Part shown: piece by piece, positions 16,105 to 49,054 of the stretch
How positions within the stretch are numbered: position 1 is the first letter of the stretch
Layout: every line of letters starts with the position of its first letter
NCBI GenBank assembly: GCA_965263065.1
Contig: CBDHGH010000003.1
Location: 1,156,537 to 1,220,536, forward strand
DNA: 64,000 nucleotides
From: Dehalococcoidia bacterium
Lineage (GTDB): Bacteria > Chloroflexota > Dehalococcoidia > Bin125
Direction of reading: 5' to 3'
Notes under the pieces: generated by a model
Told to the model about the DNA's origin: nothing
Database searches by the model: none
What the model saw: the letters and a program-made list of their open reading frames with translations, nothing else
Program-made: the position numbers and the translations under genes

Positions 16105-16109
16105 CGTGT

Positions 16110-16360: not shown

Positions 16361-16362
16361 GG

Positions 16363-20727: not shown

Positions 20728-20729
20728 CG

Positions 20730-21338: not shown

Positions 21339-21394
21339 CGCCTAGTGACAGTGCCCCGGCGTCGTGGCAGTGCGCCGATTCCCGGCCGCCCCAG

Positions 21395-22300
21395 CTAGCG
21401 CACGTTGCGCAGCCGCGGATCGAGCGCGTCGCGCAGCCAGTCGCCCATCAGGTTGCCGGTCAGCGCGATCGTCAGCAGGGCCAGCCCCGGCAGCCAGATC
21501 GGCCACCAGGCGACGTTCATGAATTCGCGGCCCTCCGAGATCATCACCCCCCACGACGGCGTGCCCGCCGGCGCGCCGACGCTGAGGAAACTCAGCGCGG
21601 CCTCGGCCAGGATCACCAGCGCGACCTCCAGCGTCATGATGATCACGACGGTGTTGACGACGTTCGGGAACAGGTGCTTGCGCATGATCCAGGCCGGCCC
21701 CGCGCCCACCGCCCGGGAGGCCGTCACGAAGTCGCGCTCCCGCAGCGAGAGCACGTCGGCCCGCACCAGCCGGGCGTACGCGGGCCAGGTCCAGATCAGC
21801 AGGATGATGATCACGTTGCGCAGGCTCGGCCCCACCAAGCTCGCCAGCAGCACCGCGAAGAGCATCGCCGGCAGCGCCAGCTGCACGTCCACCAGCCGCA
21901 TCAGCAGCTGGCCGGTGAGGCCGCCCACCCAGCCCGCGACCAGCCCGATCAGCGTCCCCACCAGCGCCGCGCCCGGCACGACGAGGAAGACCACGATCAG
22001 CGCGATGCGCGCGCCGTACAGCAGCCGGCTGAAGATGTCCCGCCCCACGTGGTCCGTGCCCAGGACATGGTCCCAACTGCCCCCGTCGAAGACGGGCGGC
22101 TGCAGGCGCCCGCCCAGGTTGAGGAACTCCGGGTCGTGCGTCGCCAGCCAGTCCGCCCCCACACCCGCCACGAGCAGCGCCAGCGCGATCAGGGCGGGGA
22201 CGGACAGCCCCAGCCGGCGCCGCCAGCGCCTGCCGCCCCGTCGCCGCTCGACGGCAACAACCGGAGCCTGCGCCGCGGTCTCCGCCGTCGGCCGGGCCAT
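21395..22300 (-). CDS. ABC transporter permease (DppC-like), copy A
   Basis: 301 aa and ~90 % nucleotide identity to 31045..31938. It has an N-terminal Arg-rich cytoplasmic tail and the EAA motif. Confidence 0.85.
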   Translation of the reverse strand: MARPTAETAAQAPVVAVERRRGGRRWRRRLGLSVPALIALALLVAGVGADWLATHDPEFLNLGGRLQPPVFDGGSWDHVLGTDHVGRDIFSRLLYGARIALIVVFLVVPGAALVGTLIGLVAGWVGGLTGQLLMRLVDVQLALPAMLFAVLLASLVGPSLRNVIIILLIWTWPAYARLVRADVLSLRERDFVTASRAVGAGPAWIMRKHLFPNVVNTVVIIMTLEVALVILAEAALSFLSVGAPAGTPSWGVMISEGREFMNVAWWPIWLPGLALLTIALTGNLMGDWLRDALDPRLRNVR

Positions 22301-23238
22301 CAGGCGGCCCCCGCCCGGATGCGCGGGTCGATCAGCCGGTACGACACGTCCACCAGCAGGTTGGTCACCGCGATCGACGCCGCCAGCACGATGATCGACG
22401 CCTGCACCATCGGGTAGTCACTCTGGACGATCGAGTCGACGATCAACCGGCCGATCCCCGGCCAGGCGAACACCAACTCGATGATCACCGAGCCGCCGAT
22501 GAGGCGGCCGAGCGAGAGGCCCAGCAGCGTCACGACCGGCAGCAGCGCGTGCCGCACGGCGTGCCGCCGGATCACCAGCCGCTCGCTCAGCCCCTTGGCC
22601 CGCGCCGTGCGAATGAAGTCGGTGTCCAGCACGTCGATCATCCCCGACCGGGTCAGCCGCATGATCGCGACCAGCTCCAGCAGCCCCAGCGACAGCGCCG
22701 GCAAGATCAAGGACCGGAAGCCGTCCTCCGCGCCGGCGGTCGGGAACCAGCCGAGCCGCACGGAGAAGAAGAAGATCAGCATCAGGCCCAGCCAGAAGCT
22801 CGGCGTGGCCTGCCCGATCACGGCCAGGAAGCGGGCCAGCCAGTCGACGGCCCGGCCCCGCCGCAACGCCGCCACGAGCCCCAACGGCGCCCCCAGCGCG
22901 ATCGCGAACACCATGCCGGCCGCCCCCAGCTTGAACGTGTTCAGCGCCCGGTCGCCGATCGCGCCGATCGCCGGTTTGCCCCCGCCCCGAAACGAGGTCC
23001 CCAAGTCCCCTTGCGCCAGGTCCCAGAGGAACTTGCCGTACTGGACGAACAGCGGGTCGTTCAGCCCCAGGGTCTCCTTCAGCTGCTCGACGTCGGCGGC
23101 CCGCCGCGACTCCATCGGCAACAGGGTCGCCACGGGATTCCCCACGAGGCGCGAGACGAAGAAGACGATCGTCACGACGAGGAAGACGACGAAGAAGGCC
23201 TGCGTGAGCCGGATCGCGAAATAGTGCCAGAACTGCAT
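22300..23238 (-). CDS. ABC transporter permease (DppB-like), copy A
   Basis: MQFWHYFAIRLTQAFF..., 312 aa, paralogue of 31938..32876. ATGA overlap with the downstream permease. Confidence 0.85.
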   Translation of the reverse strand: MQFWHYFAIRLTQAFFVVFLVVTIVFFVSRLVGNPVATLLPMESRRAADVEQLKETLGLNDPLFVQYGKFLWDLAQGDLGTSFRGGGKPAIGAIGDRALNTFKLGAAGMVFAIALGAPLGLVAALRRGRAVDWLARFLAVIGQATPSFWLGLMLIFFFSVRLGWFPTAGAEDGFRSLILPALSLGLLELVAIMRLTRSGMIDVLDTDFIRTARAKGLSERLVIRRHAVRHALLPVVTLLGLSLGRLIGGSVIIELVFAWPGIGRLIVDSIVQSDYPMVQASIIVLAASIAVTNLLVDVSYRLIDPRIRAGAA

Positions 23239-23365
23239 CAGGTCCCTTGCCGATCACGCGCCGGCGGTCCCGGGGGCGTGTGCCGCGGGCGTCGGCGCCC
23301 GCGGCGTCTCGCCGGCTCCGATCCCGGTGGGCGCATCCGACAGGGGCGCGTTCGGCGGGGGCCGC

Positions 23366-24280
23366 CTACGCGAACTGGTCGCGGCCGGCGACCTCGAGTG
23401 CCGCGGTGCGCCCCGGCTCTTCCTCGTACTTGAACGGGTAGAGGTGCTCGAGGCCCAAGAGGCGCGGCAACTCGGGGTGGCGGTCGAGGAGATTGGGGTC
23501 GCTCTCCCGCCAATCCTGGATCGGCTTCATGTACGCGCGCATCCACATCAGAGCCAGGGTGACGCGCAGGCCGGGCGTGGTGCGGGGCAGCGCGCCGTGC
23601 CAAGTCGCGCCGTGCCAGACGACCAGGGAGCCCTCGCGCGCGCTCAGCGGCACGACGCGGTAGGGGTTGTCCTCCCGCGTGAAGTCCTGCTCGTGGAGGA
23701 AGGGGGCGCGACCGAAGAGGTGGCTGCCCGGCACGTAGACCGTGGGGCCGTCCTCCTCATTGCTGTAGTCGCTCAGCACCCAGGAGGTGTTGCAGAAGTG
23801 GGCGTTCTGGGACATGGGCGGCGGCACGGCTAGGGCGTCGCAGTGGAGCAAGAGGGGCTTCGTCTGGTCGTCCGTGCTGATCCCGGGAGCCTTGTTGCTC
23901 CCCTTGAGCAGCCAGGTGGCGCCGGTCATGACCGCGCTCTGGCCGCACATCCAGCGGGCGATCGCCAGGGCCGCCGGGTTGAGGACAGCTTCGACGAAGG
24001 CCTCGTCCTCCTCGAGCAGCCACCAACTGTTCCGGAACCCCGCCTTGAGCTCGGCCGTGCGGTAGTCGTCGATCGGATCATCGTTGCGGGCGCCGTGCGT
24101 GCGCAGGATGGCGTCGCGCAGGCGCTCCACGAAGCCGGGCGCGGCCACCGTCTTCTCCGGCGGGATGACGGTGAAGCCGTAGGCGTCGAGCTCGACGACG
24201 TTGTGCTCCAAGCCGTAGCGGGTGATCTCGCTGACGGCGGCGTCGGCGGCGGGGGAGGCGTGCAGAGCGGTGATGTCCAT
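23366..24280 (-). CDS. phytanoyl-CoA dioxygenase (PhyH) family Fe(II)/2-oxoglutarate dioxygenase
   Basis: 304 aa from the ATG at 24280 (GGAAGG upstream). The PhyH-like HCD...H pattern (LLLHCDAL ... GSHLFG ... VVWHGATWHGALP) is present. The gene is embedded between the substrate-binding-protein and DppB genes of operon 2. Confidence 0.75.
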   Translation of the reverse strand: MDITALHASPAADAAVSEITRYGLEHNVVELDAYGFTVIPPEKTVAAPGFVERLRDAILRTHGARNDDPIDDYRTAELKAGFRNSWWLLEEDEAFVEAVLNPAALAIARWMCGQSAVMTGATWLLKGSNKAPGISTDDQTKPLLLHCDALAVPPPMSQNAHFCNTSWVLSDYSNEEDGPTVYVPGSHLFGRAPFLHEQDFTREDNPYRVVPLSAREGSLVVWHGATWHGALPRTTPGLRVTLALMWMRAYMKPIQDWRESDPNLLDRHPELPRLLGLEHLYPFKYEEEPGRTAALEVAGRDQFA

Positions 24281-24330
24281 GATCGGGTCTTCCCTTCCGA
24301 AAGTCGCGGGAGGTTCCGGGACGTCGCGCG

Positions 24331-26727
24331 TTAGATGTGCCGCTGCACGGCGTAGGTGCTGCCCCCAAACAGATATCCGGCGCGCCCGCCCTTGGGCCAG
24401 TTGACGTCGCCGCGGGTCAGCACGGCGTCCGGGGCCTCGACGATGAAAATCAACCACGCTTGGCGCGCGTGCTCCAGGAACAGCTCCGTGATCAGCTCCA
24501 GGCGCCGCGCCGGATCTTGCTCGGCCCTCTGCGCGAGGTACAGCTCCTGCAGGGCCGGATCGTGGACCCCCTCGCCGTTGAGCTCGAAGAAGTCGGATTC
24601 GCCCGAGGCGCAGCAATCCCACATCGATCCGACGTCGCGGTTGTTGTTGGCCCAGAACCAGTAGAGGCCCGGCGGGGAGTCGCGGCCGCCCCTCACGTAA
24701 GCGTCGGTCAAGTACTCGGCCAGGAGGGTCGACTCTTCGTGCGCGCGGATGCCGACCGCGGTCAGGTCCTGCACCACCGCCAGCACCATGTCCGCCTCGT
24801 ACGCGCCGCCCCAGTCGGTCGTCCAGTACAGAGGGATGTCGAAGCCGTCCGCGTAGCCCGCCTCTGCCAGCAGTTGCTTGGCCCGCTCGGGGTCGTAGTC
24901 GTACTGGACTTCCTGCTTCTGCTCCGGGCTGGGATAGCCGTTGACGCCGGTGAACGCGAAGAGTGGATACGTGCCCTGGCCGAGCAGGAGGTTGTCGATG
25001 ATGGATTGGCGGTTGATCGCGTGGTTCGCGGCTTGGCGGACGCGGAGGTCCAGGAACGGGTTCGGGCTGCCGTCCGGCATCGTCTCGGGGAACAGGTTGG
25101 GATAGAGGACCTGGATGGCCCACGGTCCGGCGGGCTGGAACTGCACGGCGAAGTCGGGGTCGTCCGCGTACGGCGCCACGTGATTGGGGCCCAGTTCCGC
25201 CACCATGTCGATCTCACCGGCCTCCAGGCCGGCGAGCCGCGACTGGATCTCGGGCCGTATCACGACCCTCAGGTGTTTGTTGTGGGCGTAGTGCGGCACC
25301 ACGAGGGGGTGGTCGACCGGGCGGAACTGGTCCTCGAAGCGCTCGAAGACGAAGTCCGTGTCGTCTTCGTGGCTGACGAAGCGGTAGGGGCCGGTGCCCA
25401 TCGCCTCCTGATCCACCGCGGCGTCGCCGCGCCGCTCCACGTCCGCTTGCGACATGATGCCGATCTCCAAGGTCGAGGCCAGGTCGATGATGAAGTAGGC
25501 CGGATTGAACGCCGGCAACTCGAACGACCACGTGCGGTCGTCCACGGCCTCGTTCCGGACCCAGTCCCGGGCGCTGGCCCGGTTGGGGTTCCAGGGGGCC
25601 CAGCCGCCGGGGTGATCGCTCGTCTCGCCGCCCTGGTGGTATTCGGCGAGACCGCCCTTGCGGTCGAAGTTGAACACCATGTCGTGGGCGGTGAGGATCG
25701 AGCCGTCGTGGAACGGCGCCGGCACAACCGACGCCACGATCGACGTGGCGTCGATCCACTCCGGCGCGGCGAGGTCTGGGATCGGCAAGCCATCGCGGGG
25801 ATCTATCGCCATGGGCGCGTTGAAGACGGCGCCGTGCGAGTAGTGGTTCGTGATGCTGGCGGAGCGGTGCTGATCCACCCCCCCCTGGTCGGAGGGGACC
25901 ACCCCGACGATCGAGGCGTCCAGATCGACCTGGTCGAGCGGCCAGGGGACGGTGAACTCGGCGGCCTCGGATATGGCCATGCCGGCCTCGACGGCCGCCG
26001 CAGCCGCGCTGGCGGCCTCCCCGGCCGCCTCGGCGGCCTCTTGGGCGGCGGCAACGGCCGCCGCGGCGGTCTCGGCGGCGGCTTCGGCGGTCTCCTGGGC
26101 CGTGGCGGCGGCCGCCCCGGCGGCGGCGGACGCCTCCCCGGCCGCGGCGGCAGCCGCAGCGGCCGCGTCGGCGGCCGCGTCGATGGCGGCCTGGGCGGCC
26201 GCCGCGGTGGCGGTGCCGGCCTCGACCGCGGCGGCCGCATCACGGGCGGCCTGGGCGGCGGCCTCGGCGGCCTGAGCGGCGGCGTCCGCGACGGCCGCGG
26301 CCGCGGCGTCACCGGCTGCGGATGCGGCGTCGGCGGCCTGGGCGGCCGCCGCAGCCGCGGCTTCCGCGGCGGCGGCCGCGTTGGCGGCGTCCTCCGATTC
26401 GGCCGCCTCGGCGGCCAGGGCGGCGGCGGCATCGGCGGCATCGGCGGCCTGCGAAGCCGCGGCGGCGGCCTCGGATGCGGCGGCCGACGCTTCGGACGCC
26501 GCGGCCGACGCCTCACCCGCGGCGCTGGCCGCAGCGCTCGCGTCACCCGCTGCGGCGTCAATCGCCGACGTATCGACCGCGGCCGGCGCGGCGTCATCGT
26601 CGTCGTCGCCGCAGCCGACCAAGGCCAGCCCGGCTGCTCCAACCCCAGCCTTCGCGCTGGCTCCCAACATGGTGCGGCGCGAGATCTTCCGCTGTCGAAG
26701 GGTCGTCCAATAGTTGCGGTCGCTCAT
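24331..26727 (-). CDS. ABC transporter substrate-binding lipoprotein (family 5) with Tat signal and ~330-aa poly-Ala/acidic linker, paralogue 2
   Basis: MSDRNYWTTLRQRKISRRTMLGASAKAGVGAAGLALVGCGDDDDD, then an Ala/Glu/Asp/Ser-rich low-complexity stretch of ~330 aa, then the SBP domain. The ATG at 26727 is confirmed. Confidence 0.85.
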   Translation of the reverse strand: MSDRNYWTTLRQRKISRRTMLGASAKAGVGAAGLALVGCGDDDDDAAPAAVDTSAIDAAAGDASAAASAAGEASAAASEASAAASEAAAAASQAADAADAAAALAAEAAESEDAANAAAAAEAAAAAAAQAADAASAAGDAAAAAVADAAAQAAEAAAQAARDAAAAVEAGTATAAAAQAAIDAAADAAAAAAAAAGEASAAAGAAAATAQETAEAAAETAAAAVAAAQEAAEAAGEAASAAAAAVEAGMAISEAAEFTVPWPLDQVDLDASIVGVVPSDQGGVDQHRSASITNHYSHGAVFNAPMAIDPRDGLPIPDLAAPEWIDATSIVASVVPAPFHDGSILTAHDMVFNFDRKGGLAEYHQGGETSDHPGGWAPWNPNRASARDWVRNEAVDDRTWSFELPAFNPAYFIIDLASTLEIGIMSQADVERRGDAAVDQEAMGTGPYRFVSHEDDTDFVFERFEDQFRPVDHPLVVPHYAHNKHLRVVIRPEIQSRLAGLEAGEIDMVAELGPNHVAPYADDPDFAVQFQPAGPWAIQVLYPNLFPETMPDGSPNPFLDLRVRQAANHAINRQSIIDNLLLGQGTYPLFAFTGVNGYPSPEQKQEVQYDYDPERAKQLLAEAGYADGFDIPLYWTTDWGGAYEADMVLAVVQDLTAVGIRAHEESTLLAEYLTDAYVRGGRDSPPGLYWFWANNNRDVGSMWDCCASGESDFFELNGEGVHDPALQELYLAQRAEQDPARRLELITELFLEHARQAWLIFIVEAPDAVLTRGDVNWPKGGRAGYLFGGSTYAVQRHI

Positions 26728-26880
26728 CACATGTTCCCTTCTGGTCCCCGGCTGTCCCGTTGTGGGACCGCTCGGTGCGTGAGCGCGCACAGTATGGCAG
26801 GTTAAGAGAGTACCCGCCACTCTCGTTATGTCACATCGAAAAGAACTATTGATGCTCCCATGGAATTTATCGGTGCCGGG
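26728..26880 (-). promoter_or_regulatory. conserved structured 5' leader / promoter region of SBP paralogue 2 (near-identical copy at 35447..35600)
   Basis: ~150 nt is >90 % identical between the two loci. It includes an AT-richer segment (AATAGTTCTTTTCGATGTGACATAACGAG), three predicted hairpins and a GAAGGGAA Shine-Dalgarno. Confidence 0.6.
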
Positions 26881-26917
26881 CGCCGCGACCGCCTCCGCGA
26901 TCCCCCGATCGACGCTG

Positions 26918-26937
26918 CCCCCCCCCCCCCCCCCCCC
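26918..26937. repeat. homopolymeric tract, 20 consecutive C (G20 on the transcribed strand)
   Basis: Read directly: gacgctgccc cccccccccc cccccccgcc. It sits immediately 3' of the DUF2064 gene stop and at the upstream edge of the SBP2 promoter/leader. Confidence 0.9.
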
Positions 26938-26942
26938 GCCAG

Positions 26943-27641
26943 TCAGCGCCGCGACGCCAGCGACCGCACGACCGGCGTCGTCCGCCGTCCGGCGACCCGG
27001 GTGCCCGGCGCCGCCCGGCCGATCCGCGCCCGCAGGTCCGCGAGGTCGTCCGCCGTGTCGATGTCGTGCAGCGTCTCGACGCGGGCGCTGCGCAGCCCCG
27101 CCGCCGCGGCCGCCGCCTGGGACCGCGCCAGCACGTCCGGCCCGCCCCACGGGATCGACGCCGCGAACAGCGTCGCTTCGCGGTCGTCGCGCAGGCGGCG
27201 CAGTGCGACCAGGTAGTAGCCCCCGTCGGCGGCCGGCCCGAAGACGACGTCGGCCGCCGGCGGGGCGCCGAGCGCCCGCTGCGCCCGCTCGACCTGCGAC
27301 GCGCGCAGCGCCGGGATGTCGGTCCCGACCAGGGTCACCGGCCCCGCCCCGGCCGCGAACAGCGCCGCCGCCGCCGCCCGCATGCGCGCGCCGATATCGC
27401 CCGGCGCTTGCGGCAGGACGTCGTCGTGGCCGGTGAGCGCGCGGACGGCGTCGACCGTCCCGGCCGGCTCGACGAACACGACCGTGCGCCAGGGCCCCGC
27501 CGCGATCGCCTCCACCGTGTCGCGCAGCATCGCCGTCGCCAGCGCCACGGCGGCGGCGTCGCCGATCGTGCGGGCGAGCCGGGTCTTCGTGCGGCCGGGC
27601 GCCGGGGCGCGCGTCAGGATGCCGACGGCGGGGCCCGGCAT
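26943..27641 (-). CDS. TIGR04282-family protein (DUF2064, MobA/CofC-like nucleotidyltransferase fold)
   Basis: 232 aa, MPGPAVGILTRAPAPGRTKTRL..., with a GTDIP motif. Its ATG overlaps the stop of the upstream GT2 gene (ATGA). The family assignment is from memory. Confidence 0.65.
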   Translation of the reverse strand: MPGPAVGILTRAPAPGRTKTRLARTIGDAAAVALATAMLRDTVEAIAAGPWRTVVFVEPAGTVDAVRALTGHDDVLPQAPGDIGARMRAAAAALFAAGAGPVTLVGTDIPALRASQVERAQRALGAPPAADVVFGPAADGGYYLVALRRLRDDREATLFAASIPWGGPDVLARSQAAAAAAGLRSARVETLHDIDTADDLADLRARIGRAAPGTRVAGRRTTPVVRSLASRR

Positions 27642-28321
27642 CAGCGGATGTGCCGGTACAGCCGCGCCAGCCGATGCGGCGAGACGCCGGCGCAGTAGCC
27701 GAGCTGAATCACGACCCACGACGCCCAGGTGCGCGCGAGGCCCCCCCGCTCCCAGCGCCGCGGCGAGGCGCGGACGGCGGCTCGCAGGTACGCCATCCGC
27801 CCCATCCGGTGCAGCCGCCGCACGAACGCCAGATCCTCCATCAGCGGGACGGGCGGGAAGCCCCCGCACGCCGCGAAGGCGCCGGCCCGGCAGAAGAGCG
27901 CCGAGTCGCCGTAGTACACCCGGCAGCGCCGCATCACGTGGTAGAGCGCGGCCAGGAAGCGACCGTGCGCGCTGGGCCCGAAGTCGACGCGGTGGTTGCC
28001 CCCCACGACGCGGGCGTCGCGCAGGGCGGCCCGCATCGCGCGGCCCGCGGCCGGATGCAGGCGGGCGTCGGCGTGCAGGAAGCAGTAGATCTGGCCGCGC
28101 GCCGCCTCGGCCCCCCGATTGAGCTGCGGCCCCCGCCCGCGTGCGCCCGTCACGACCCGCGCGCCCAGCGATTCCGCGATCGGCGCCGTCGCGTCGTGGG
28201 ATCCCGCGTCGCTGACGATGACCTCGTCGGCCCCGGCCGCGAGGGCGCTCGACACGGCGCCGGCGATCGCCTCCGCCTCGTTGAGGGTGGGAATGATCAC
28301 GCTCAGCATCGGCTGCGACAC
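27641..28321 (-). CDS. family 2 glycosyltransferase (TIGR04283-like), partner of the DUF2064 protein
   Basis: LSVIIPTLNEAEAI....VIVSDAGSHD is a GT-A fold with a DxD-like motif. The start is GTG at 28321 or ATG at ~28309. Confidence 0.75.
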   Translation of the reverse strand: MSQPMLSVIIPTLNEAEAIAGAVSSALAAGADEVIVSDAGSHDATAPIAESLGARVVTGARGRGPQLNRGAEAARGQIYCFLHADARLHPAAGRAMRAALRDARVVGGNHRVDFGPSAHGRFLAALYHVMRRCRVYYGDSALFCRAGAFAACGGFPPVPLMEDLAFVRRLHRMGRMAYLRAAVRASPRRWERGGLARTWASWVVIQLGYCAGVSPHRLARLYRHIR

Positions 28322-28382
28322 GATGTCCTCCCCCGCGCAGGCCGACCCGCGGAGGGCCGCCCGGCTCGGCTACGATAGATGC

Positions 28383-29228: not shown

Positions 29229-29308
29229 GTCAGCCGCCGTTGAAGCGCGGCAGGCCCTTGCGCCGCCCGCGCCTCGACAACATTTGCCAAGCTGTCTAGC
29301 ATTGCCGT

Positions 29309-29548
29309 ATGAGGACGATGAACATCTCGCTCCCCGCGGCCCTCCGATCCTTCGTGGAGCGGCAGGTCAGCGCCCGCAGTTACAGCTCGTTAAGCGAGTA
29401 CGTCCGCGAGTTGATCCGCAAGGACCGGGATCGCCAGCGCCTGCACGATCTGCTCCTCAAAGGCGCGGCGTCGCCGCCGGCGGTCACCGCCGATGCCGAC
29501 TACATCGGCCGGCTTCGCGATCAGGTCCGCGAAGCCAACCAGCGGTGA
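29309..29548 (+). CDS. parD: type II antitoxin, ParD/CopG (ribbon-helix-helix) family
   Basis: 79 aa, MRTMNISLPAALRSFVERQVSARSYSSLSEYVRELIRKD. Its stop overlaps the start of the downstream toxin gene. Confidence 0.8.
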   Translation: MRTMNISLPAALRSFVERQVSARSYSSLSEYVRELIRKDRDRQRLHDLLLKGAASPPAVTADADYIGRLRDQVREANQR

Positions 29549-29904
29549 CCGAAAAACCGATCGTCCTTCGCGAGCGGGCCCTGCGCGATGTCGAGGCGGC
29601 CGTCGAGCACTATCTGGCCCTGGCGCCGCCGGCCCTGGCGCCGGCGGCCCTAGCGCCGGCGGCCGCCGCGCTCGCCTTCATCGACGCGCTGGACGCCGCC
29701 TTCCAGCGGATGCGCGAGCAGCCTGGAAGCGGTGAGCCCCGTTATGCGCGAGAACTGGATCTCTCCGGCCTGCGCACGACGCTCGTGACCGGGTTCCCGT
29801 ACCTCGTCTTCTACGTTGCGGGGGAGGCGGACATCGACGTCTGGAGGATCCTGCATGCAGCGCCGGACATCCCGGCGTGGCCGCAGGATCCACTCGAGGA
29901 CTGA
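29545..29904 (+). CDS. parE: type II toxin, ParE/RelE family, with an internal Ala/Pro tandem-repeat insertion
   Basis: GTG start overlapping the parD TGA. The C-terminus ...LVTGFPYLVFYVAGEADIDVWRILHAAPDIPAWP is ParE-like. The N-terminal third contains PPALAPAALAPAAAALA, encoded by ~15-nt tandem repeats. Confidence 0.6.
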   Translation: MTEKPIVLRERALRDVEAAVEHYLALAPPALAPAALAPAAAALAFIDALDAAFQRMREQPGSGEPRYARELDLSGLRTTLVTGFPYLVFYVAGEADIDVWRILHAAPDIPAWPQDPLED

Positions 29905-29976
29905 TCCTGGGCGCCGGCCGGTACGCTGCGGCCATCCGACCCACCCCATCGGACCCAGCGAGGAAAGGACCGTGCG

Positions 29977-30339
29977 ATGTTCGTCGCCATGAACCGATTC
30001 CGCGTCGTGCCCGCGCGCGAGCGCGATTGGGAGCGCATCTGGAAGGAGCGCGAGACCTACCTCGAGGCCGTCCCCGGCTTCGTGCAGTTCGCGCTGCTGC
30101 GCGGCGACGACGAGGGCGACTACGTCAGCCACAGCATCTGGCGCGACCGCGCCGCCTTCGAGGCCTGGACCCGCTCCGACGCCTTCCGCAAGGGCCACGC
30201 GCAGGGATCGCTGGAGGGCGTGCTGGCCGGCCCGCCGCAACTCGGCCTCTTCCAGGCCGTCATCCATGAGGCCCCCGGCGGCCTGCGCGAGGTCGACGAC
30301 AGCGACCCCGTGCCCGGCCGCCGCGGCCCCCGCCACTGA
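29977..30339 (+). CDS. antibiotic-biosynthesis-monooxygenase (ABM) family protein
   Basis: 120 aa, MFVAMNRFRVVPARERDWERIW...FVQFALLRG..HSIW, a typical ABM fold signature. Confidence 0.7.
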   Translation: MFVAMNRFRVVPARERDWERIWKERETYLEAVPGFVQFALLRGDDEGDYVSHSIWRDRAAFEAWTRSDAFRKGHAQGSLEGVLAGPPQLGLFQAVIHEAPGGLREVDDSDPVPGRRGPRH

Positions 30340-30350
30340 CGCGCACCCTG

Positions 30351-30920
30351 CTAGCCGAAGCGCGGCGTCTCGGGGTCGGCGAGCGCGGCCTCGCCGTCGC
30401 GCGGCAGAACGTCGAGGTGGTTCAGCGCCGCGTCGACGTCGCCCTGCCACTGCTCGGCCGGCAGCGAGTACAGCAACTCCACGCCGTGCCCGTCGGGGTC
30501 CTCGACGTAGACGCTGTGGCTGGTGCCGTGGTTGACCCGGCTGCCGAACTCGACCCCCGCCGCCTGCAGGCGTCGCAGCTGCGCCAGCCAGGCCGCCTGA
30601 TCGCCGTACTCGACCGCCAGATGGTTGAGCCCCGGCCCCCGCGACGCCGCCTCCGCCTCCGCCTCGGCGGCCCCGTCGGGCAGCTGCATCAGCGCCACGT
30701 CGTGATGGTTGCCGCCGCGGCCGGCGTAGAAGCGCATCCGCCGCGCCCGCGACGGGTCCGACTCCGCCACCTGACGGAAGCCCAGCACGTCGGTCCAGAA
30801 CCCGTGCGCGCGCTCGAGATCGCGCACGTTGAGCACGATGTGGTTGAGACCGACCGGCCCGGGCGGGGCTGATCCTGCGCCGGCCTCCGGGCCGGCGTCC
30901 AGCGTTGGGTTTCTGGGCAT
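30351..30920 (-). CDS. VOC (glyoxalase/bleomycin-resistance/extradiol dioxygenase) family protein
   Basis: LNHIVLNVRDLERAHGFWTDVLGF ... LNHLAVEY ... HSVYVEDPDGHGVEL, two beta-alpha-beta-beta-beta modules. Confidence 0.75.
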   Translation of the reverse strand: MPRNPTLDAGPEAGAGSAPPGPVGLNHIVLNVRDLERAHGFWTDVLGFRQVAESDPSRARRMRFYAGRGGNHHDVALMQLPDGAAEAEAEAASRGPGLNHLAVEYGDQAAWLAQLRRLQAAGVEFGSRVNHGTSHSVYVEDPDGHGVELLYSLPAEQWQGDVDAALNHLDVLPRDGEAALADPETPRFG

Positions 30921-31044
30921 GACGACTCCTCGCGGGCATCCGGTCGGCGCCTCGGGCGCGACCGTTTGCCGGCAGTTTAGCCCAGCGCCCGTGCGGCGGC
31001 GCGCCTGGGTTGCGGCCGCGTGCGGATGGTCGGGCGCCCCGACG

Positions 31045-31938
31045 CTAGCGCACGTGGCGCAGGCGCGGATCGAGGGCGTCGCGGAGCCAATCGCCCATCA
31101 GGTTGCCGGTCAGCGAGATCGTCAGCAGGGCCAGGCCCGGCAGCCAGATGGGCCACCAGGCGACGTTCATGAAGTCCCGGCCCTCCGAGATCATCACCCC
31201 CCACGACGGCGTGCCCGGCGGCGCGCCCACGGTCAGGAAGCTCAGCGCCGCCTCGGCCAGGATCACCAGCGCCACCTCCAGCGTCATGATGATCACGACG
31301 GTGTTGACGACGTTCGGGAACAGGTGCCGGCGCATGATCCAGACGGGGCCTGCCCCGGTCGCCCGCGATGCCGTGACGAAGTCGCGCTCCTTGAGCGTGA
31401 GCACGTCGGCGCGCACCAGCCGCGCGTACGCGGGCCAGGTCCAGATCAGCAGGATGATGATCACGTTGCGCAGGCTGGGCCCGACCAGGGCCGCCAGCAG
31501 CACCGCGAACAGGATGCCCGGCATGGCCAGCTGCACGTCGACCAGGCGCATCAGCAGTTGGCCGGTGAGGCCGCCCGCCCAGCCCGAGATCAGCCCCACC
31601 AGCGTCCCGAGCAGCGCCGCGCCCGGCACCACGGCCCCGACGACGATCAAGGAGATCCGCGCGCCGTACAGCAGCCGGCTGAAGATGTCCCGCCCCACTT
31701 GGTCGGTGCCCAGGAAGTAGTCCCAGCTGCCCCCGGCGAAGACGGGCGGCTCCAAGCGCCCGCCCAGGTTGATGAACTCCGGGTCGTGCGGCGCCAGCCA
31801 GTTCGCCCCCAGGCCCGCGACGAGCAGCGCCAGCGCGATCGCGCCGGGCACGGACAGCCCCAGCCAGCGCCGCCAGCGGATGCCGCGCCGCCGCTGCGCC
31901 AGGGGCGTCGCCGTCTGGCCCGCCGCTTGGCCCGCCAT
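31045..31938 (-). CDS. ABC transporter permease (DppC-like), copy B
   Basis: 297 aa, paralogue of 21395..22300 (~90 % nucleotide identity). Confidence 0.85.
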   Translation of the reverse strand: MAGQAAGQTATPLAQRRRGIRWRRWLGLSVPGAIALALLVAGLGANWLAPHDPEFINLGGRLEPPVFAGGSWDYFLGTDQVGRDIFSRLLYGARISLIVVGAVVPGAALLGTLVGLISGWAGGLTGQLLMRLVDVQLAMPGILFAVLLAALVGPSLRNVIIILLIWTWPAYARLVRADVLTLKERDFVTASRATGAGPVWIMRRHLFPNVVNTVVIIMTLEVALVILAEAALSFLTVGAPPGTPSWGVMISEGRDFMNVAWWPIWLPGLALLTISLTGNLMGDWLRDALDPRLRHVR

Positions 31939-32876
31939 CAGGCGGCCCCCGCCCGGATGCGCGGGTCGATCAGCCGGTACGACACGTCGACCAGCAGGTT
32001 CACGACCGCGATCGAGGCCGCCAGCACGATGATCGAGGCCTGCACCATCGGGAAGTCGTTCTTGAAGATCGAGTCGACGATCAGCCGGCCGACCCCGGGC
32101 CAGGCGAACACCATCTCGATGATCACCGAGCCGCCGATCAACCGGCCCAGCGAGAGGCCCAGCATCGTCACGACCGGCAGCAGCGCGTGCCGCACGGCGT
32201 GCCGCCCGATGACCACCCGCTCGCTCAGCCCCTTGGCCCGCGCCGTGCGAATGAAGTCGGTGTCCATGACCTCGATCATCCCCGAGCGGGTGAGCCGCAT
32301 GATCGCGACCAATTCAAACAGGCCGAGTGCGATCGCGGGCAGGATCAACGAGCGGAAGCCCGCGTCTTCACCGCCGGTCGGGAACCAGCCCAACTGGACG
32401 GCGAAGAAGAAGATCATCATCAGGCCCAGCCAGAAGCTCGGCGTGGCCTGCCCGATCACCGCCACGAAGCGCGCCAGCCAGTCGATGACCGTGCCCCGCT
32501 TCAACGCCGCGAGGATGCCCAGCGGGACCGCCAGCGCGAGCGCGAACACCACGCCCGCCACCCCCAGCTTGAGCGTGCTCACCGCCCGGTCGCCGATCGC
32601 GGCGAGCGCCGGCGTGCCCCCGCCCAGCCACGAACTCCCGAAGTCGCCTTGCGCCAACTTCCCCAGGAAGATGGCGTATTGGACGTGGAGCGGGTGGTGC
32701 AGCCCGAGATCCTCCCGCAGGCGCTCGACGGCTTCGGGCCGTCGCTGGTCGGGCGCCAGCAGGGTCGCCTCGGGATTGCCCACGAGGCGCGAAACGAAGA
32801 AGACGGTCGTCGCGACGATGAAGACGACGAAGAACGCCTGGACCAGCCGGATCGCGAAGTAGCTCCAGAACTGCAT
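31938..32876 (-). CDS. ABC transporter permease (DppB-like), copy B
   Basis: MQFWSYFAIRLVQAFF... The start is the internal ATG; the ORF extension to 32930 starts at TTG. ATGA overlap with the downstream permease. Confidence 0.85.
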   Translation of the reverse strand: MQFWSYFAIRLVQAFFVVFIVATTVFFVSRLVGNPEATLLAPDQRRPEAVERLREDLGLHHPLHVQYAIFLGKLAQGDFGSSWLGGGTPALAAIGDRAVSTLKLGVAGVVFALALAVPLGILAALKRGTVIDWLARFVAVIGQATPSFWLGLMMIFFFAVQLGWFPTGGEDAGFRSLILPAIALGLFELVAIMRLTRSGMIEVMDTDFIRTARAKGLSERVVIGRHAVRHALLPVVTMLGLSLGRLIGGSVIIEMVFAWPGVGRLIVDSIFKNDFPMVQASIIVLAASIAVVNLLVDVSYRLIDPRIRAGAA

Positions 32877-32934
32877 CAGTCCCCCTGCGGTGCGGGCGCT
32901 GGTGGTCCGGCGGCAGTGTAGCGGAGGCAACCAT

Positions 32935-33210
32935 GCCGGCGGGCCGCCGGAATCTGACCCCCGAACCGAACCCCCTCTCCGTTGCAGAGCATAGGAGAGG
33001 GAATCGGATCCCCTCTCCCCAGGGGAGAGGGTGAGGGTGAGGGGGACCCGGCGCCCGCGCCCCTGTCCCCCTCTCCATCCTTCTGGATGGAGAGGGAATC
33101 GGATCCCCTCTCCCCCTTGGGGGAGAGGGTTCGGGTGAGGGGGTCTCCGCGACCGCGGACCCTCACCCTAGCCCTCTCCCAGGGGGAGAGGGGACCGGAG
33201 GTTCCGGCGC
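32935..33210. repeat. second cluster of CCCCTCTCC/GGAGAGGGG palindromic hairpin repeats (REP-like)
   Basis: At least six hairpins, for example CCCCTCTCCCC-A-GGGGAGAGGG, CCCTCTCCATCC-TTCT-GGATGGAGAGGG, CCCCTCTCCCCC-TT-GGGGGAGAGGG and GGGTGAGGG...CCCTCACCC. The position (SBP to DppB intergenic) matches 16110..16360. Confidence 0.75.
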
Positions 33211-33211
33211 C

Positions 33212-35446
33212 TTAGGTGGCCTTGCGCCGCTGGATGGCGTAGGCCGAGCCGCCCCACGCGAAGCCGGTGCTCCCGCCCTTGGGCCAGTTGACGTCCGCCG
33301 GGGTTAGCACCGCGTCCGGCGCCTCGACGATGAAGATGAGCCACGCTTGGCGCGCGTGCTCCAGCATCAGTTCCGCGGTCATCGCGCTGCGCCGTGCGGG
33401 ATCGAGCTCGGCGCGCTGTGCGAGGTACAGCTCGTGCAGGGCCGGATCCATAACCCCCTCGCCGCCGAGCTTCGTGAAGTAGGATTCGGGCCCGACGCAG
33501 CAATCCCACATCGATCCGATGTCGCGGACGATGTTGGCCCACATCCAATAGAGGCCCACCGGGCGGTCGCGGCCGCCGACGAGGTAGGCGTCGGAGAAGT
33601 ACTCGGAGACGAGGGCCGCCTCCGGCTGCGTGCGGATGCCGATCGCGGCCAGGTCCTGGGCCACGGCCGGCACCATGTCCGCCATGGCCTGGCCGCCCCA
33701 GTCGGTCGTCCAGTACAGCGGAACCTCGAAGCCGTCCGCGTAGCCGGCCTCCGCCATCAACTGCCGCGCCAGTTCGGGGTCGTAGTGGTACTCGACTTCC
33801 GCCCGCTGCTCCGGGGTCGGGTAGCCGTACACGCCGGCGAACGTGAACAGAGGATAGTGGCCCTGGCCGAGCAGGAGGTTGTCGATGATGGCTTGGCGGT
33901 TGATCGCGTGGTTCGCGGCCCGGCGGACGCGGAAGTCGAGGAACGGGTTCGGGCTGCCGTCCGGCATCGTCTGGGGGTACAGGTTGGGATAGAGCACCTG
34001 GATGGCCGCCCCGTTGATGCCGGGTTGGTATTGCACCGTGAAGTCGGGGTCGTCCAGGTACGGCTGCACGTTGTTGGGGCCCAGGTCCGGCACCACGTCG
34101 ATCTCCCCGGCCTCGAGGCCGGCCAGCTGCGACTGGATCTCGGGCCGCACCACGACCCGCTGGTGCTTGTGGTGGGCGTAGCGCGACACGACGACGGGAT
34201 GGTCGACCGGGAGGAAGTGCTCCTCGAAGCGCTCGAAGACGAAGTCCGTGTCGTCTTCGTGGCTGACGAAGCGGAAGGGGCCAGTACCCATCGGTGAGGT
34301 GTCCATCGCGAGGTCGCCGCGCGCCTCCGTGTCCGCCTGCGACATGATGACGACCTCGCCGGTCCCGGCCAGGTTGACGACGAAGAAGCCCGCATCGGGC
34401 AACGGCAACTCGATCGACCAGGTGCGGTCGTCCACGGCCTCGTTGCGGACCCAGTTCGCGGAGCTCCGGCCGAAGTTCGAGGGGGTCCAGCCGCTGGGGT
34501 GATCGGTCGTCTCGCCGCCCTGGTGGTAGGCGGCCTTCCCGGCCATGCGGTCGTAGCTGAACACGATGTCGTGGGCGGTGAGGATCGAGCCGTCGTGGAA
34601 CGGCGCCGGCACCACCGACGCCACGATCGACGTTTGGTCGACCCACTCCGGCGCGGCGAGATGCGGGATCGCCACGGCGGCGGCGGGCTCCCATTCCATG
34701 GTCGGACTGAAGACGGCGCCGTGCGAGTACTGGTTCGTCTTGCTGCCGGTCCGCATCTGGTCCAGCCCCCCCGCGTCGGAGGGGACCACCGGGATGATCG
34801 TGGCGTCCAGGTCGACCTGGTCGAGCGGCCAGGGCACGGAGAAGTCCTCGGTGTCGCCCAGGACGGCGACGGCGGCGACGGCTTCGACGGCCTCGCGGGC
34901 TGCGTCGGCGGCCTCCTCGGCGGCCGTGGCGGCGACCGCCGCGGCCTCAGCGGCGGCCTGGGCCGCGGCGGCGGCGGCGGCCGTGTCCTCGGCGCCCACC
35001 TCCCGCGCGGCGGCGGCCGCGGCCCCGGCGGCATCGGCGGCCGCCTGCGCGACGGCCGCGGCGCCCGCGTCCCCCGCGGCCCGGGCCGCGTCGGCGGCGT
35101 CGGCCGCGGCGTCGGCGGCGGCCTGAGCGGCGGCGGCCGCGGCCGCGGCGTCATCGGAGCTGGCGGCTTCGGCCGCCATCGCGGAGGCGGCTTCGGCGGC
35201 TTCGGCGGCGCGGCCCGCGGCATCGGCGGCGTCGCTCGCGGCCTCCGCCGCAGCCGCGGCGTCGCCCGCGGCGGCGTCGATCGCCGACGTATCGACCGCG
35301 GCCGGCGCGGCGTCATCGTCGTCGTCGCCGCAGCCGACCAAGGCGAGGCCGGCGGCCCCAACCCCAGCCTTCGCGCTGGCTCCCAACATGGTGCGGCGTG
35401 AGATCTTCCGCTGTCGCAGGGTCGTCCAATAGTTGCGGTCGCTCAT
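33212..35446 (-). CDS. ABC transporter substrate-binding lipoprotein (family 5) with Tat signal and ~250-aa poly-Ala/acidic linker, paralogue 3
   Basis: The signal peptide is identical to paralogue 2 (MSDRNYWTTLRQRKISRRTML...LVGCGDDDDD). An Ala/Asp/Glu-rich linker of ~250 aa follows, then an SBP domain closely related to paralogue 2. The ATG at 35446 is confirmed. Confidence 0.85.
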   Translation of the reverse strand: MSDRNYWTTLRQRKISRRTMLGASAKAGVGAAGLALVGCGDDDDDAAPAAVDTSAIDAAAGDAAAAAEAASDAADAAGRAAEAAEAASAMAAEAASSDDAAAAAAAAQAAADAAADAADAARAAGDAGAAAVAQAAADAAGAAAAAAREVGAEDTAAAAAAAQAAAEAAAVAATAAEEAADAAREAVEAVAAVAVLGDTEDFSVPWPLDQVDLDATIIPVVPSDAGGLDQMRTGSKTNQYSHGAVFSPTMEWEPAAAVAIPHLAAPEWVDQTSIVASVVPAPFHDGSILTAHDIVFSYDRMAGKAAYHQGGETTDHPSGWTPSNFGRSSANWVRNEAVDDRTWSIELPLPDAGFFVVNLAGTGEVVIMSQADTEARGDLAMDTSPMGTGPFRFVSHEDDTDFVFERFEEHFLPVDHPVVVSRYAHHKHQRVVVRPEIQSQLAGLEAGEIDVVPDLGPNNVQPYLDDPDFTVQYQPGINGAAIQVLYPNLYPQTMPDGSPNPFLDFRVRRAANHAINRQAIIDNLLLGQGHYPLFTFAGVYGYPTPEQRAEVEYHYDPELARQLMAEAGYADGFEVPLYWTTDWGGQAMADMVPAVAQDLAAIGIRTQPEAALVSEYFSDAYLVGGRDRPVGLYWMWANIVRDIGSMWDCCVGPESYFTKLGGEGVMDPALHELYLAQRAELDPARRSAMTAELMLEHARQAWLIFIVEAPDAVLTPADVNWPKGGSTGFAWGGSAYAIQRRKAT

Positions 35447-35600
35447 CACATGTTCCCTTCTGGTCCCCGGCTGTCCCGTTGTGGGATCACTCGGTGCGTG
35501 AGCACGCACAGTATGGCAGGTTAAGCGAGTACCCGTCACTCTCGTTATGTCACATAGAAAAGAACTATTGATGCTTCCATGGAATTTATCGGTGCCGGGC
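35447..35600 (-). promoter_or_regulatory. conserved structured 5' leader / promoter of SBP paralogue 3 (copy of 26728..26880)
   Basis: Near-identical to the SBP2 leader with a few substitutions. It carries the same AT-richer box and the GAAGGGAA Shine-Dalgarno. Confidence 0.6.
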
Positions 35601-35870
35601 GCCGGAACCTCACCCCCTAACCTCCTCTCCATTGCCGAGCAACGGAGCGGCGGGATCGGAGGGGAGAGGGGGCTAGGCGGTGGCGCCGACCCCGGACTCT
35701 CGCCCCCATTGCCCTTCCGGTCCCCCCTCTCCAGCGCTTCAGCTGGAGAGGGGGCTAGGGGGTGAGGTTCCCCCGCCGGTCCCCCCTCTCCATCGCTTCC
35801 GATGGAGAGCCCCAGGCGCGCGACCGCACCCCGTCGTATCGGAAGTCAGGGGGTGAGGTCGGGCCGTGCG
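35590..35870. repeat. third cluster of CCCCTCTCC/GGAGAGGGG palindromic hairpin repeats
   Basis: Examples: CCCCCCTCTCCAGCGCTTCAGCTGGAGAGGGGG (13-bp stem) and CCCCCCTCTCCATCG-CTTCC-GATGGAGAG. It lies between the SBP3 promoter and the 3' end of cysN. Confidence 0.7.
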
Positions 35871-49012: not shown

Positions 49013-49054
49013 CAGCGCCAAGCCCTTCCTCGAAGGCTTTTGCAGCGGTCGGGA

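Follow-up and report, generated by a model that had tools for sequence, protein, structure and literature searches.

The tauABCD operon of Escherichia coli, to which the ssu/ats systems are related, encodes an ABC importer together with an Fe(II)/2-oxoglutarate (2OG) dioxygenase that acts on the imported compound. Importers of the Dpp/Opp/Nik/opine type (PepT family, TC 3.A.1.5) combine an SBP_bac_5 binding protein (SBP) with DppB/DppC-like permeases, and PhyH-like tailoring oxygenases such as SptF, PrhA, SnoN/SnoK, KanJ and HygX are found in biosynthetic clusters. In enterobacteria, intergenic REP/BIME elements, multi-copy and extragenic clusters of GC-rich palindromes, are described exactly between the genes for the binding protein and the first permease in malE-malF and hisJ-hisQ (Higgins et al. 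1982; Newbury et al. 1987 Cell 48:297, both listed in PMC7509114). These are the known systems closest to the operons of the 64-kb stretch of DNA analysed here (the window), the first of which is operon A:

21395-26885, minus strand: operon A, SBP-DppB-DppC plus PhyH1
21395..22300, minus strand: DppC-type permease, 301 aa (Pfam BPD_transp_1, E = 4e-30)
22300..23238, minus strand: DppB-type permease, 312 aa (BPD_transp_1, E = 2.4e-47, plus BPD_transp_1_N)
23239..23365, minus strand: spacer between PhyH1 and DppB, containing a single 10-bp GC hairpin (about 23282-23305)
23366..24280, minus strand: PhyH1, 304 aa, PhyH-family Fe(II)/2OG oxygenase in the SBP/DppB slot (Pfam PF05721, E = 1.8e-20)
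24331..26727, minus strand: SBP_A, 798 aa, family-5 solute-binding domain (SBP_bac_5, E = 5.9e-45), with a Tat-lipoprotein signal (26611-26727, SRRTML...LVGC motif) and an Ala-rich linker (about 25960-26610)
26728..26885, minus strand: leader/promoter region with an AT-rich block, a TGnCATACT extended -10-like motif and a 5'-UTR hairpin

Operon A resembles tauABCD in that a binding protein, a permease and a non-haem Fe/2OG oxygenase would share one transcription unit, and the oxygenase, cytoplasmic in tauABCD, is predicted to be so here, where its action on the cargo is presumed. It differs in that the oxygenase is a PhyH-family (PF05721) and not a TauD/TfdA protein, that its gene lies between those of the SBP and the permeases, that the transporter, of the PepT/Dpp type, combines a family-5 SBP with two permeases, and that the operon contains no ATPase gene. 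With the Dpp/Opp/Nik/opine importers it has SBP_bac_5 and DppB/DppC-like permeases in common, but it has no adjacent DppD/DppF genes, its Tat-lipoprotein SBP bears an Ala-rich tether of 150-240 aa, and all NCBIfam scores fall short of the equivalog cut-offs, the best similarities being to nickel/oligopeptide permeases and DppA. Among solved SBPs, DppA, AgaA and AccA are the nearest.

A second operon, B, lies nearby, and a third of the same family, C (14271-18705), is absent from the initial annotation:

31031-35604, minus strand: operon B, SBP-DppB-DppC without a PhyH gene
31045..31938, minus strand: DppC-type permease of B, 297 aa (translation, blastn; L006 orthologue 94% aa)
31938..32876, minus strand: DppB-type permease of B, 312 aa (translation; L006 orthologue 96.8% aa)
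32877..33211, minus strand: SBP/DppB spacer of B, geneless, five REP-like hairpins (32973-33192)
33212..35446, minus strand: SBP_B, 744 aa (SBP_bac_5, E = 1.3e-45), signal peptide as in SBP_A, Ala-rich linker different
35447..35604, minus strand: leader of B
35605..35810, minus strand: REP-like elements at the upstream border of B, two hairpins between GAACCTCACCCC / GGGGTGAGGTTC outer arms (repeat family D12)
14271..16104, minus strand: permeases of C, DppC_C (14271-15167) and DppB_C (15160-16104), 41-45% aa identity to A
16105..16362, minus strand: SBP/DppB spacer of C, three REP-like hairpins (16202-16330), fold z = -4.75
16363..18705, minus strand: SBP_C, 780 aa (SBP_bac_5, E = 3.2e-52), signal-peptide family shared, binding domain distinct

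All six genes previously noted in the window were recovered at the same coordinates on the minus strand, and the Pfam matches (SBP_bac_5, BPD_transp_1 twice, PhyH) range from E = 1.8e-20 to 2.4e-47. Family searches yielded 201 matches at E < 1e-20 and point to A, B and C as members of a large family. A genome would contain at least 6-9 of its paralogues, a size taken from relatives with 6-9 paralogues of >50% identity on single chromosomes of 2.6-2.9 Mb, the source genome being known here from 64 kb. The members most likely represent PepT-type (peptide/opine/nickel class) ABC-importer modules, each comprising a leader, an SBP lipoprotein whose Tat/lipobox signal is standard and whose Ala-rich tether is long and conserved, a spacer and two permease genes. 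No DppD/F-type ATPase genes were found across the 64-kb window and, because such genes are lacking in cis, the ATPases are presumably supplied in trans and shared between modules, as relatives also suggest. The system is ordinary in kind; what is instructive is its modular architecture.

Alignments identify A and B as paralogous over the whole SBP-DppB-DppC operon, as had been proposed: blastn pairs 21383-23281 with 31031-32919 and 24336-26885 with 33223-35604, collinear over the entire length, the SBP, DppB and DppC of one operon are each close relatives of their counterparts in the other, and the similarity far exceeds chance. Amino acid identity amounts to 73-85% at a dS of 0.24-0.31, values that are compressed by ~95% GC3 and give no absolute ages. 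Between SBP_A and SBP_B, identity is 78% at the nucleotide and 73% at the amino acid level; DppB_A is 78.5% identical to its copy in B (aa; dN 0.13, dS 0.26) and DppC_A 84.5% (aa; 87% nt), while DppC_A reaches 91-95% aa identity with its L001/L002 orthologues. The permeases had been described as ~90% identical at the nucleotide level; we measured 85.4% over 1905 nt, and 90-94% is attained in some 100-nt windows only. Likewise, the near-identity reported for the 3' UTR holds for the ~12-14 nt that follow the DppC stop codon, beyond which identity falls to 57%.

The indel between A and B spans exactly the SBP/DppB spacer and contains the PhyH gene, which is present in A and missing from B as initially annotated. 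A single gain or loss following duplication would nevertheless be too simple an explanation, because comparisons with relatives indicate that the spacer is a slot in which different oxygenase genes turn over repeatedly: it holds PhyH1 in A and REP-PhyH2-REP in relative L007, whereas B, its orthologues and C have nothing but REP arrays there. The L007 locus is syntenic with A (87-95% nt), its insert sits between the same two anchors, and PhyH1 and PhyH2 have no detectable similarity to each other. The left junction of PhyH1 lies directly after GGAACCTC, the opening bases of the REP outer arm; at the other end, homology restarts at 23281 against B and at 23266 against L007, the final ~28-43 nt of the PhyH1-DppB spacer being shared with these two. 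The single hairpin is the only stable structure of this spacer (fold z = -1.4).

The palindromic repeats reported for B at the position of PhyH in A are indeed present as five CCCTCTCC-loop-GGAGAGGG hairpins, and the RNA fold of the B spacer reaches -229 kcal/mol (z = -8.6). This pattern occurs nine times in the window (0 expected), every time within or beside these transporter operons, and REP hairpins occupy the same SBP/DppB spacer in the B orthologues of L006 and L014; REP elements are thus associated with the operons of this family. As in malE-malF and hisJ-hisQ, GC-rich palindromes are clustered exactly between the binding-protein and first permease genes, and are multi-copy and extragenic. 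By analogy with these two systems, the arrays in the spacers of B, C and the B orthologues probably protect the SBP message upstream of them and increase the SBP:permease ratio. However, the elements belong to another sequence family (CCCTCTCC-loop-GGAGAGGG inside GAACCTCACCCC/GGGGTGAGGTTC arms) in another phylum, they are additionally found at operon borders and on either side of an inserted gene, and their effect on mRNA is putative.

PhyH1 itself has an intact catalytic motif (H146-x-D148...H228 and R239, invariant in 110 homologues) and no signal peptide; the predicted enzyme is a cytoplasmic Fe(II)/2OG oxygenase that is catalytically competent. Its AF2 model (pLDDT 91) is closest in fold to SptF/SnoN/KanJ: PhyH1 shares with the tailoring oxygenases the predicted double-stranded beta-helix (TM 0.5-0.6), the HxD...H triad and the 2OG-binding Arg, but the PDB relatives are only 17-21% identical to it, and PhyH1 belongs to an uptake operon instead of a biosynthetic cluster. 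Following the logic of tauABCD, PhyH1 would be co-transcribed with the transporter and most likely oxidises the imported compound in the cytoplasm. Oxidation of the cargo after import is plausible, and gains support because two unrelated PhyH subfamilies are recurrently linked with this transporter family, inside or beside its operons: in the SBP-DppB gap, after the SBP and after DppC. Alternatively, the PhyH genes could be passengers that inserted at a permissive intergenic hot spot rich in REPs, with substrates unrelated to the cargo. The turnover of the slot and the direct REP copies flanking PhyH2 fit this explanation, as do the truncation of many PhyH2 copies, the occurrence of distant PhyH1 homologues (50-55% identity) away from transporters, and the dS of PhyH1 (0.03-0.09, against 0.09-0.56 in flanking genes), which suggests recent lateral spread among operons. 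Against it stand the repeated occurrence of two unrelated subfamilies in or directly beside operons of this one family, in three different positions, and the intact motif, operon orientation, short spacers and Shine-Dalgarno sequence of PhyH1, and we consider this explanation unlikely.

The near-identity of leaders and signal peptides noted earlier is borne out: the leaders agree at 151 of 158 positions (26728-26885 vs 35447-35604), and the first 63 codons of SBP_A and SBP_B encode identical peptides. Divergence of the leaders is significantly below that of 4-fold sites (p = 9e-5). That of operon A, for which searches returned neither an Rfam match nor a strict sigma-70 match, contains a conserved 5'-UTR hairpin (GGTCCC-ACAAC-GGGAC) and shares conserved blocks with its counterparts in L014, L007, L009 and L001. 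On comparison across the family, the identical signal peptides are a conserved Tat-lipoprotein module and no sign of recency, since the same peptide heads nearly every member, even those with 50% identical binding domains, and dS is the same in the first 63 codons (0.24) as in the mature domain (0.238). Recent gene conversion could also have produced the similarity of the 5' regions, without any need for selection: leaders and linkers are mosaic among the relatives' paralogues, and the 126 nt encoding the signal peptide are 95% identical between A and B, against 79-90% to their own orthologues. Yet this equality of dS, with a 4-fold divergence of 23% in the first 63 codons and 18% in the mature domain (Fisher p = 0.5), argues against a converted tract, which moreover would have to end precisely at the start codon to account for a low divergence of the leader only; we regard conversion as improbable.

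The initial annotation had interpreted the pair as a recent segmental duplication in place, after which one copy gained or lost the oxygenase in a single event. The collinearity of the operons is genuine, the leader and first 63 codons are 95-96% identical, and only ~4 kb separate A from B in the source genome. Nevertheless, the copies differ at 15-22% of nucleotides (dS 0.24-0.31), and each has closer orthologues in other species (dS 0.09-0.28, 87-99% aa; 0.09-0.19 for A), which places the A-B split, as far as these distances tell, before the divergence from other species-level Dehalococcoidia/Chloroflexota genomes. Both arrangements were found in related genomes: A-type operons with PhyH1 in three others (90-96% aa), PhyH1 being kept at the SBP/DppB junction in L001, L002, L003 and L010, and B-type operons without PhyH (87-99% aa; SBP_B 96-99% in P0001-P0003, 83-92% in others). 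The A-type and B-type operons of two other complete genomes are ~1.05-1.1 Mb apart, in unrelated contexts, and B is missing from the syntenic locus of L007, the placement of whose operon conflicts between DppB and DppC trees with weakly supported key nodes. A recent duplication in place is contradicted by these data and by the signal peptide, which is conserved family-wide and does not differ in dS from the remainder of the gene, and is very improbable. An artefact in which repeat collapse or expansion during assembly mimics a second copy deserves mention since the sequence probably stems from a metagenome assembly and a 20-G homopolymer (26918-26937) hints at local quality problems, but it is practically negligible because of the 15-22% divergence, with hundreds of differing sites, intact reading frames in both copies and independent orthologues of each in other assemblies.

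A and B are old paralogues within a large family that is probably specific to this high-GC Dehalococcoidia/Chloroflexota lineage. Its modules probably move, get lost and recombine as discrete units bordered by REP-like hairpin elements, and the proximity of A and B is therefore most likely a secondary arrangement and no fresh tandem duplication. The Ala-rich linkers, unmentioned in the initial annotation, are present in each SBP (A, B and C) with a length of ~150-240 aa, about 60% of it alanine. The linker region of SBP_C (17850-18432) is 81% identical in nucleotides to 25983-26532 in SBP_A, and the stretch 26098-26427 of the SBP_A linker, common to SBP_C, shows a dN of 0.028 and a dS of 0.376, a dN/dS of ~0.075 between A and C.

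The minus strand of the window carries three operons of one kind, not two, each with a solute-binding protein gene (SBP) and genes for a DppB- and a DppC-type permease. Genes in this stretch, which has a GC content of 71.9%, were called by GC3 and then confirmed by Pfam, where SBP_bac_5, BPD_transp_1 (twice) and PhyH all scored well over their gathering thresholds.

Operon A, minus strand: SBP 24331-26727, PhyH 23366-24280, DppB 22300-23238, DppC 21395-22300
Operon B, minus strand: SBP 33212-35446, DppB 31938-32876, DppC 31045-31938; SBP|DppB spacer of 335 nt, gene-free
Operon C, minus strand: SBP 16363-18705, DppB 15160-16104, DppC 14271-15167; SBP|DppB spacer of 258 nt

The three binding proteins (SBP_A, SBP_B and SBP_C) contain the family-5 solute-binding domain PF00496 (E = 1e-45 to 3e-52), and each operon has the pair of BPD_transp_1 permeases, one DppB-type and one DppC-type, expected of the PepT class. 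The permeases resemble Opp2B/NikB and Opp2C/NikC in NCBIfam at scores under the equivalog cut-offs, and NCBIfam held no equivalog for the SBPs. Sequence searches of the PDB returned generic relatives only, with DppA, AgaA and AccA as the closest solved SBPs (E ~1e-14). Operon C (14271-18705) bears the signal peptide of the other family members, and its binding and permease domains are 41-46% identical in amino acids to those of A and B. In contrast to the Dpp/Opp/Nik class, in which the operon includes two cognate ATPase genes, operons A, B and C have none: DppD/DppF-type ATPase genes were found neither in the window nor beside A, B, C and the loci L001, L002, L006, L007 and L014 of related genomes, and the sole ABC_tran gene of the window (45875-46789) is part of a FecCD/Peripla_BP_2 system. 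Taken by its components, the system combines a PepT-type ABC importer, an Fe/2OG oxygenase encoded in its operon and intercistronic spacers containing REP-like GC-rich hairpins (REPs), all of known kinds; our search of the literature on PhyH, on Chloroflexi/SAR202 and ABC transporters, and on Ala-rich SBP linkers found nothing specific.

The initial annotation had read A and B as paralogues that differ by one inserted dioxygenase gene, and both the paralogy and the indel are real. Collinear blastn alignments join 21383-23281 to 31031-32919 (85.4% nucleotide identity over 1905 nt) and 24336-26885 to 33223-35604 (78.1% over 2560 nt), and the indel is exactly the spacer between SBP and DppB, which measures 1054 nt including PhyH in A and about 300 nt in B.

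Divergence between operons A and B (NG86)
SBP: 73% amino acid identity, dN 0.19, dS 0.31
DppB: 78.5% amino acid identity, dN 0.13, dS 0.26
DppC: 84.5% amino acid identity, dN 0.10, dS 0.28

In 100-nt windows the identity of the two operons is 64-94% in the permeases, 76-91% in the binding domain and 94-98% in the leader and signal-peptide stretch, while the Ala-rich linkers scarcely align. A near-identical 3' UTR, also proposed initially, is absent, as the homology stops about 12 nt past the DppC stop. An assembly artefact can be dismissed, because hundreds of differences separate the two copies and their reading frames are intact.

The age of the pair is a different matter. A recent segmental duplication of about 5 kb, as first suggested, is refuted by nucleotide identities of 78-85%, by a dS of 0.24-0.31 and by orthologues in other genomes that are closer. 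A genome scan with the SBP_A domain revealed three Dehalococcoidia/Chloroflexota MAGs that also carry the SBP-PhyH-DppB-DppC operon, with amino acid identities of 90-92% for SBP, 92-96% for PhyH and 90-95% for the permeases; the genes flanking it there are unrelated. A protein search with the SBP_B domain yielded 201 matches at E < 1e-20, graded from 99% to 50% identity, and a single chromosome of 2.6-2.9 Mb holds six to nine different SBP cluster representatives. In the NJ tree the B clade (matches P0001-P0030) is sister to an A-like clade with several sub-lineages, and orthologues in other genomes are closer (87-99% amino acid identity) than A is to B. Because a GC3 of ~95% compresses dS, the order of its values is meaningful and their absolute size is not: 0.09-0.19 for A against its orthologues, 0.16-0.28 for B against its L006 orthologue and 0.24-0.31 for A against B. 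The A/B split is therefore older than the divergence of these species, and the family has many paralogues besides A and B.

Nor did the pair arise in tandem in its present place. In two complete genomes the A-type and B-type operons lie about 1.05-1.1 Mb apart, at positions 1.22 Mb (B) and 2.35 Mb (A-type) in the CAXXCV01 genome (L006), and 1.59 Mb (B) and 2.65 Mb (A-type) in the 2.85-Mb genome of L014. Both B orthologues have the order SBP, REP spacer, DppB, DppC, without PhyH, in surroundings unrelated to one another and to the window. L007, from the 2.85-Mb genome, is syntenic with the window (91-95% nucleotide identity across the glyoxalase, DsbD-like, GT2, DUF2064, TPP-decarboxylase, AhpC and SBP_C genes); operon B is missing there, and in its place another SBP gene immediately precedes the glyoxalase gene. 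Of the arrangement sought in related genomes, the SBP-PhyH-DppB-DppC order recurs (in the three MAGs) and the A-B adjacency was not found in the two complete genomes or at L007; a scan of metagenome contigs with the SBP alignment gave a single locus, distant and uninformative. The 4-kb proximity of A and B here arose secondarily.

The strong resemblance at the 5' ends of A and B, which had been noted correctly, has another explanation. The sequence MSxRNYWTxLRQRKISRRTMLGASAKAGVGAAGLALVGCGDDD heads almost every family member, even where the binding domains are just 50% identical, and SRRTMLGASAKAGVGAAGLALVGC, with its twin-arginine, hydrophobic region and lipobox Cys, is found in A, B and C as well as in nearly every other member of the family, by which the SBPs would be Tat-exported lipoproteins. 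The first 63 codons of A and B show no non-synonymous and 10 synonymous differences. Their dS (0.24) matches that of the mature domain (0.238), and 4-fold sites differ at 23% against 18% in the mature domain (p = 0.5); the identity of the signal peptides is therefore a product of purifying selection and not of a recent event. Recent gene conversion had to be dropped for the coding part on the same grounds, its dS being that of the whole gene. The 158-nt leader differs between A and B at 7 positions and is constrained non-coding DNA, because it is significantly less diverged than 4-fold sites (p = 9e-5). Alignment with L014, L007, L009 and L001 shows conservation of an AT-rich block, of a TGnCATACT motif that resembles an extended -10 element, and, directly ahead of the Shine-Dalgarno sequence, of a 5'-UTR hairpin (GGTCCC-ACAAC-GGGAC). 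A strict sigma-70 scan detected no promoter, a terminator scan gave chance-level matches only, and Rfam at gathering thresholds had no match in leaders or spacers. A plausible call of 'recent duplication' from sequence alone can thus mislead: here, recency is imitated by family-wide conservation of the signal peptide and by constraint on the leader.

Between the lipobox Cys and the binding domain, each SBP has 150-240 residues that are ~60% alanine plus acidic residues and that no Pfam family covers.

~25960-26610, minus strand: Ala-rich stretch of SBP_A
~34700-35330, minus strand: Ala-rich stretch of SBP_B
~17700-18590, minus strand: Ala-rich stretch of SBP_C

SBP_A and SBP_C, with binding domains about 44% identical, share a 110-aa stretch of this linker at a dN of 0.028 and a dS of 0.376. 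A recent conversion tract is ruled out by these values (dS 0.38, dN 0.03), which indicate purifying selection. The apparently 'low-complexity' region is a conserved functional module, given its dN/dS of ~0.075, and may form a helical stalk or tether. In L001 the linker of the A orthologue begins as C-type, and the A orthologue of L002 combines a B-type linker with a C-type leader. Together with the stretch common to SBP_A and SBP_C, this shows that paralogues do exchange the 5' module (leader, signal peptide and linker) over longer time scales.

The second variable part of these operons is the spacer between SBP and DppB, hereafter the slot. The alignment of L007 with operon A runs to 21 nt past the SBP stop and resumes 28 nt ahead of the DppB start. 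The interval is occupied in the window by its oxygenase gene, PhyH1, and in L007 by a 297-aa PF05721 gene, PhyH2 (E = 7.6e-12, 46.4 bits); comparison of the two detected no similarity. PhyH2 is bracketed in L007 by nearly identical REP copies. The left junction of PhyH1, identical in the window, L001, L002, L003 and L010, follows directly on GGAACCTC, with which the REP outer arm GGAACCTCACCCCC begins. Only REP hairpins, in two to five copies, occupy the slot of B, C, L006 and L014. Both PhyH types also accompany this transporter family at other positions: the order is DppB-DppC-SBP-PhyH1 followed by a permease remnant in L010, DppB-DppC-PhyH1-PhyH1-DppB-DppC in L011, and SBP-DppB-DppC-PhyH2 in L015/L016 (2441-7894), where the module interrupts a leucine-biosynthesis cluster midway, between leuB and leuA, and illustrates the insertion of these operons as discrete units. 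The L010 remnant (7046-7217) joins ~43 nt from the start of DppB to ~130 nt from the end of DppC and leaves a 51-aa ORF; it is a decayed family member with a clean deletion of the permease pair.

PhyH1 differs from its counterparts in L001, L002 and L010 by a dS of 0.03-0.09, against 0.09-0.56 in the adjacent permeases. This lower divergence than in its neighbours suggests that the operons diverged first and that PhyH1 spread among them later. The DppB and DppC trees (NJ) are weakly supported and mutually incongruent, as expected under recombination, and do not settle gain versus loss of PhyH1. Whether B lost or A gained the gene, repeated turnover of the slot is the robust statement.

The spacer of B contains five CCCTCTCC-loop-GGAGAGGG hairpins and that of C three (16202-16330). 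The 64-kb window has nine such hairpins against none expected. All are intergenic, and each lies either in the SBP|DppB spacer of B or C or immediately ahead of the operon B leader. The same element is present in L001, L002, L006, L007 and L014, and operons of relatives are also bounded by it. These are short, GC-rich, imperfect palindromes, multi-copy and intergenic, as are REP/BIME elements. The predicted fold of the B spacer has -229 kcal/mol (z = -8.6), and that of the C spacer a z of -4.75. Their position is identical to that of the REP elements in malE-malF and hisJ-hisQ, a type that reportedly protects upstream mRNA and raises binding-protein output. By position and predicted stability, the arrays in B and C would likewise protect the upstream SBP mRNA and increase SBP output. 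A 20-nt homopolymer (G on the minus strand) closely precedes the operon A leader, at 26918-26937, and L007 has at this point a REP hairpin flanked by G-runs; the homopolymer may be the scar of a REP excision or may have been produced by sequencing error in a homopolymer.

PhyH1 matches PF05721 at 74.6 bits (cut-off 22) and is without a signal peptide. It has both the HxD...H iron triad and the basic residue for the C5 carboxylate of 2OG: H146-x-D148...H228 and R239 are invariant across 110 homologues, and the distal His and the Arg align with those of PrhA. The AF2 model (pLDDT 91, pTM 0.90) is a double-stranded beta-helix, to which Foldseek matched SptF, SnoN, KanJ and HygX at probability 1.00; the tailoring oxygenases SptF, SnoN/SnoK, KanJ and HygX are the nearest solved folds, at a TM of 0.5-0.6 and 17-21% identity. 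NCBIfam has no equivalog for PhyH1 or PhyH2. The spacers, with Shine-Dalgarno-like sequences, are short (50 nt between SBP and PhyH1, 127 nt between PhyH1 and DppB) and fit co-transcription. The tauABCD operon encodes an importer together with an oxygenase that acts on the imported compound, and by analogy import followed by oxidation appears the most economical model. The lipoprotein SBP would capture a compound, DppBC would import it, powered by ATPases encoded elsewhere, and PhyH1 would oxidise it in the cytoplasm.

Three features go beyond the routine at the family level: the standardised 5' module with its Ala-rich tether, the relocation of operons as units and the REP-marked PhyH slot. 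One could go further and combine relocatable cassettes, a standard 5' module, module exchange, ATPases in trans and the REP-marked slot into a 'plug-and-play' mode of uptake in this Chloroflexota lineage, a reading we consider rather unlikely. Under it, dozens of relocatable SBP-permease cassettes may be delimited by REP/MITE-like elements; each may carry a standardised and selectively maintained 5' module, exchanged among paralogues, consisting of the constrained ~158-nt leader, a Tat-lipoprotein signal and a conserved poly-Ala/acidic stalk of 150-240 aa; and alternative, unrelated PhyH oxygenases may be swapped into the slot to match the cargo. If it were true, REP elements would serve as landmarks for the recombination that replaces genes inside operons, and the Ala-rich stalk would be a new tether domain that spans the envelope. 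Our data document an expanded and mobile family of uptake operons in uncultured marine and host-associated Chloroflexota. The recurrent wiring of unrelated Fe/2OG oxygenases into these operons points to oxidative catabolism of an imported compound class, and the conserved Ala-rich tether and the REP-bounded slot most deserve specialist attention.

Some neighbouring genes merit mention. A two-gene TPP enzyme is convergent with operon A (20218-21338, plus strand):

20218-20727, plus strand: TPP_enzyme_N (weak)
20730-21338, plus strand: TPP_enzyme_C

It is most like phosphonopyruvate/sulfopyruvate decarboxylase, at scores under the NCBIfam cut-offs; in L007, but in neither L001 nor L002, it is conserved beside the A-type operon. 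DUF3179 genes adjoin the DppBC/SBP/PhyH arrays of L010 (157-1572 and 9447-10877) and L011 (2453-3886), and the window has one about 9 kb from operon B (44193-45833, plus strand), so that the association may be recurrent. A cobalamin riboswitch (RF00174, 32.6 bits; 49061-49143, minus strand), the sole Rfam match of the window, lies upstream of the Peripla_BP_2/FecCD/ABC_tran operon (about 45875-49167), which presumably is a B12 or corrinoid importer. Finally, three ECH_1 (enoyl-CoA hydratase/isomerase) genes in a row, followed by luciferase-like monooxygenase, aminotransferase and hydrolase genes (55787-58535, plus strand), look like a catabolic cluster with a paralogue expansion of its own.
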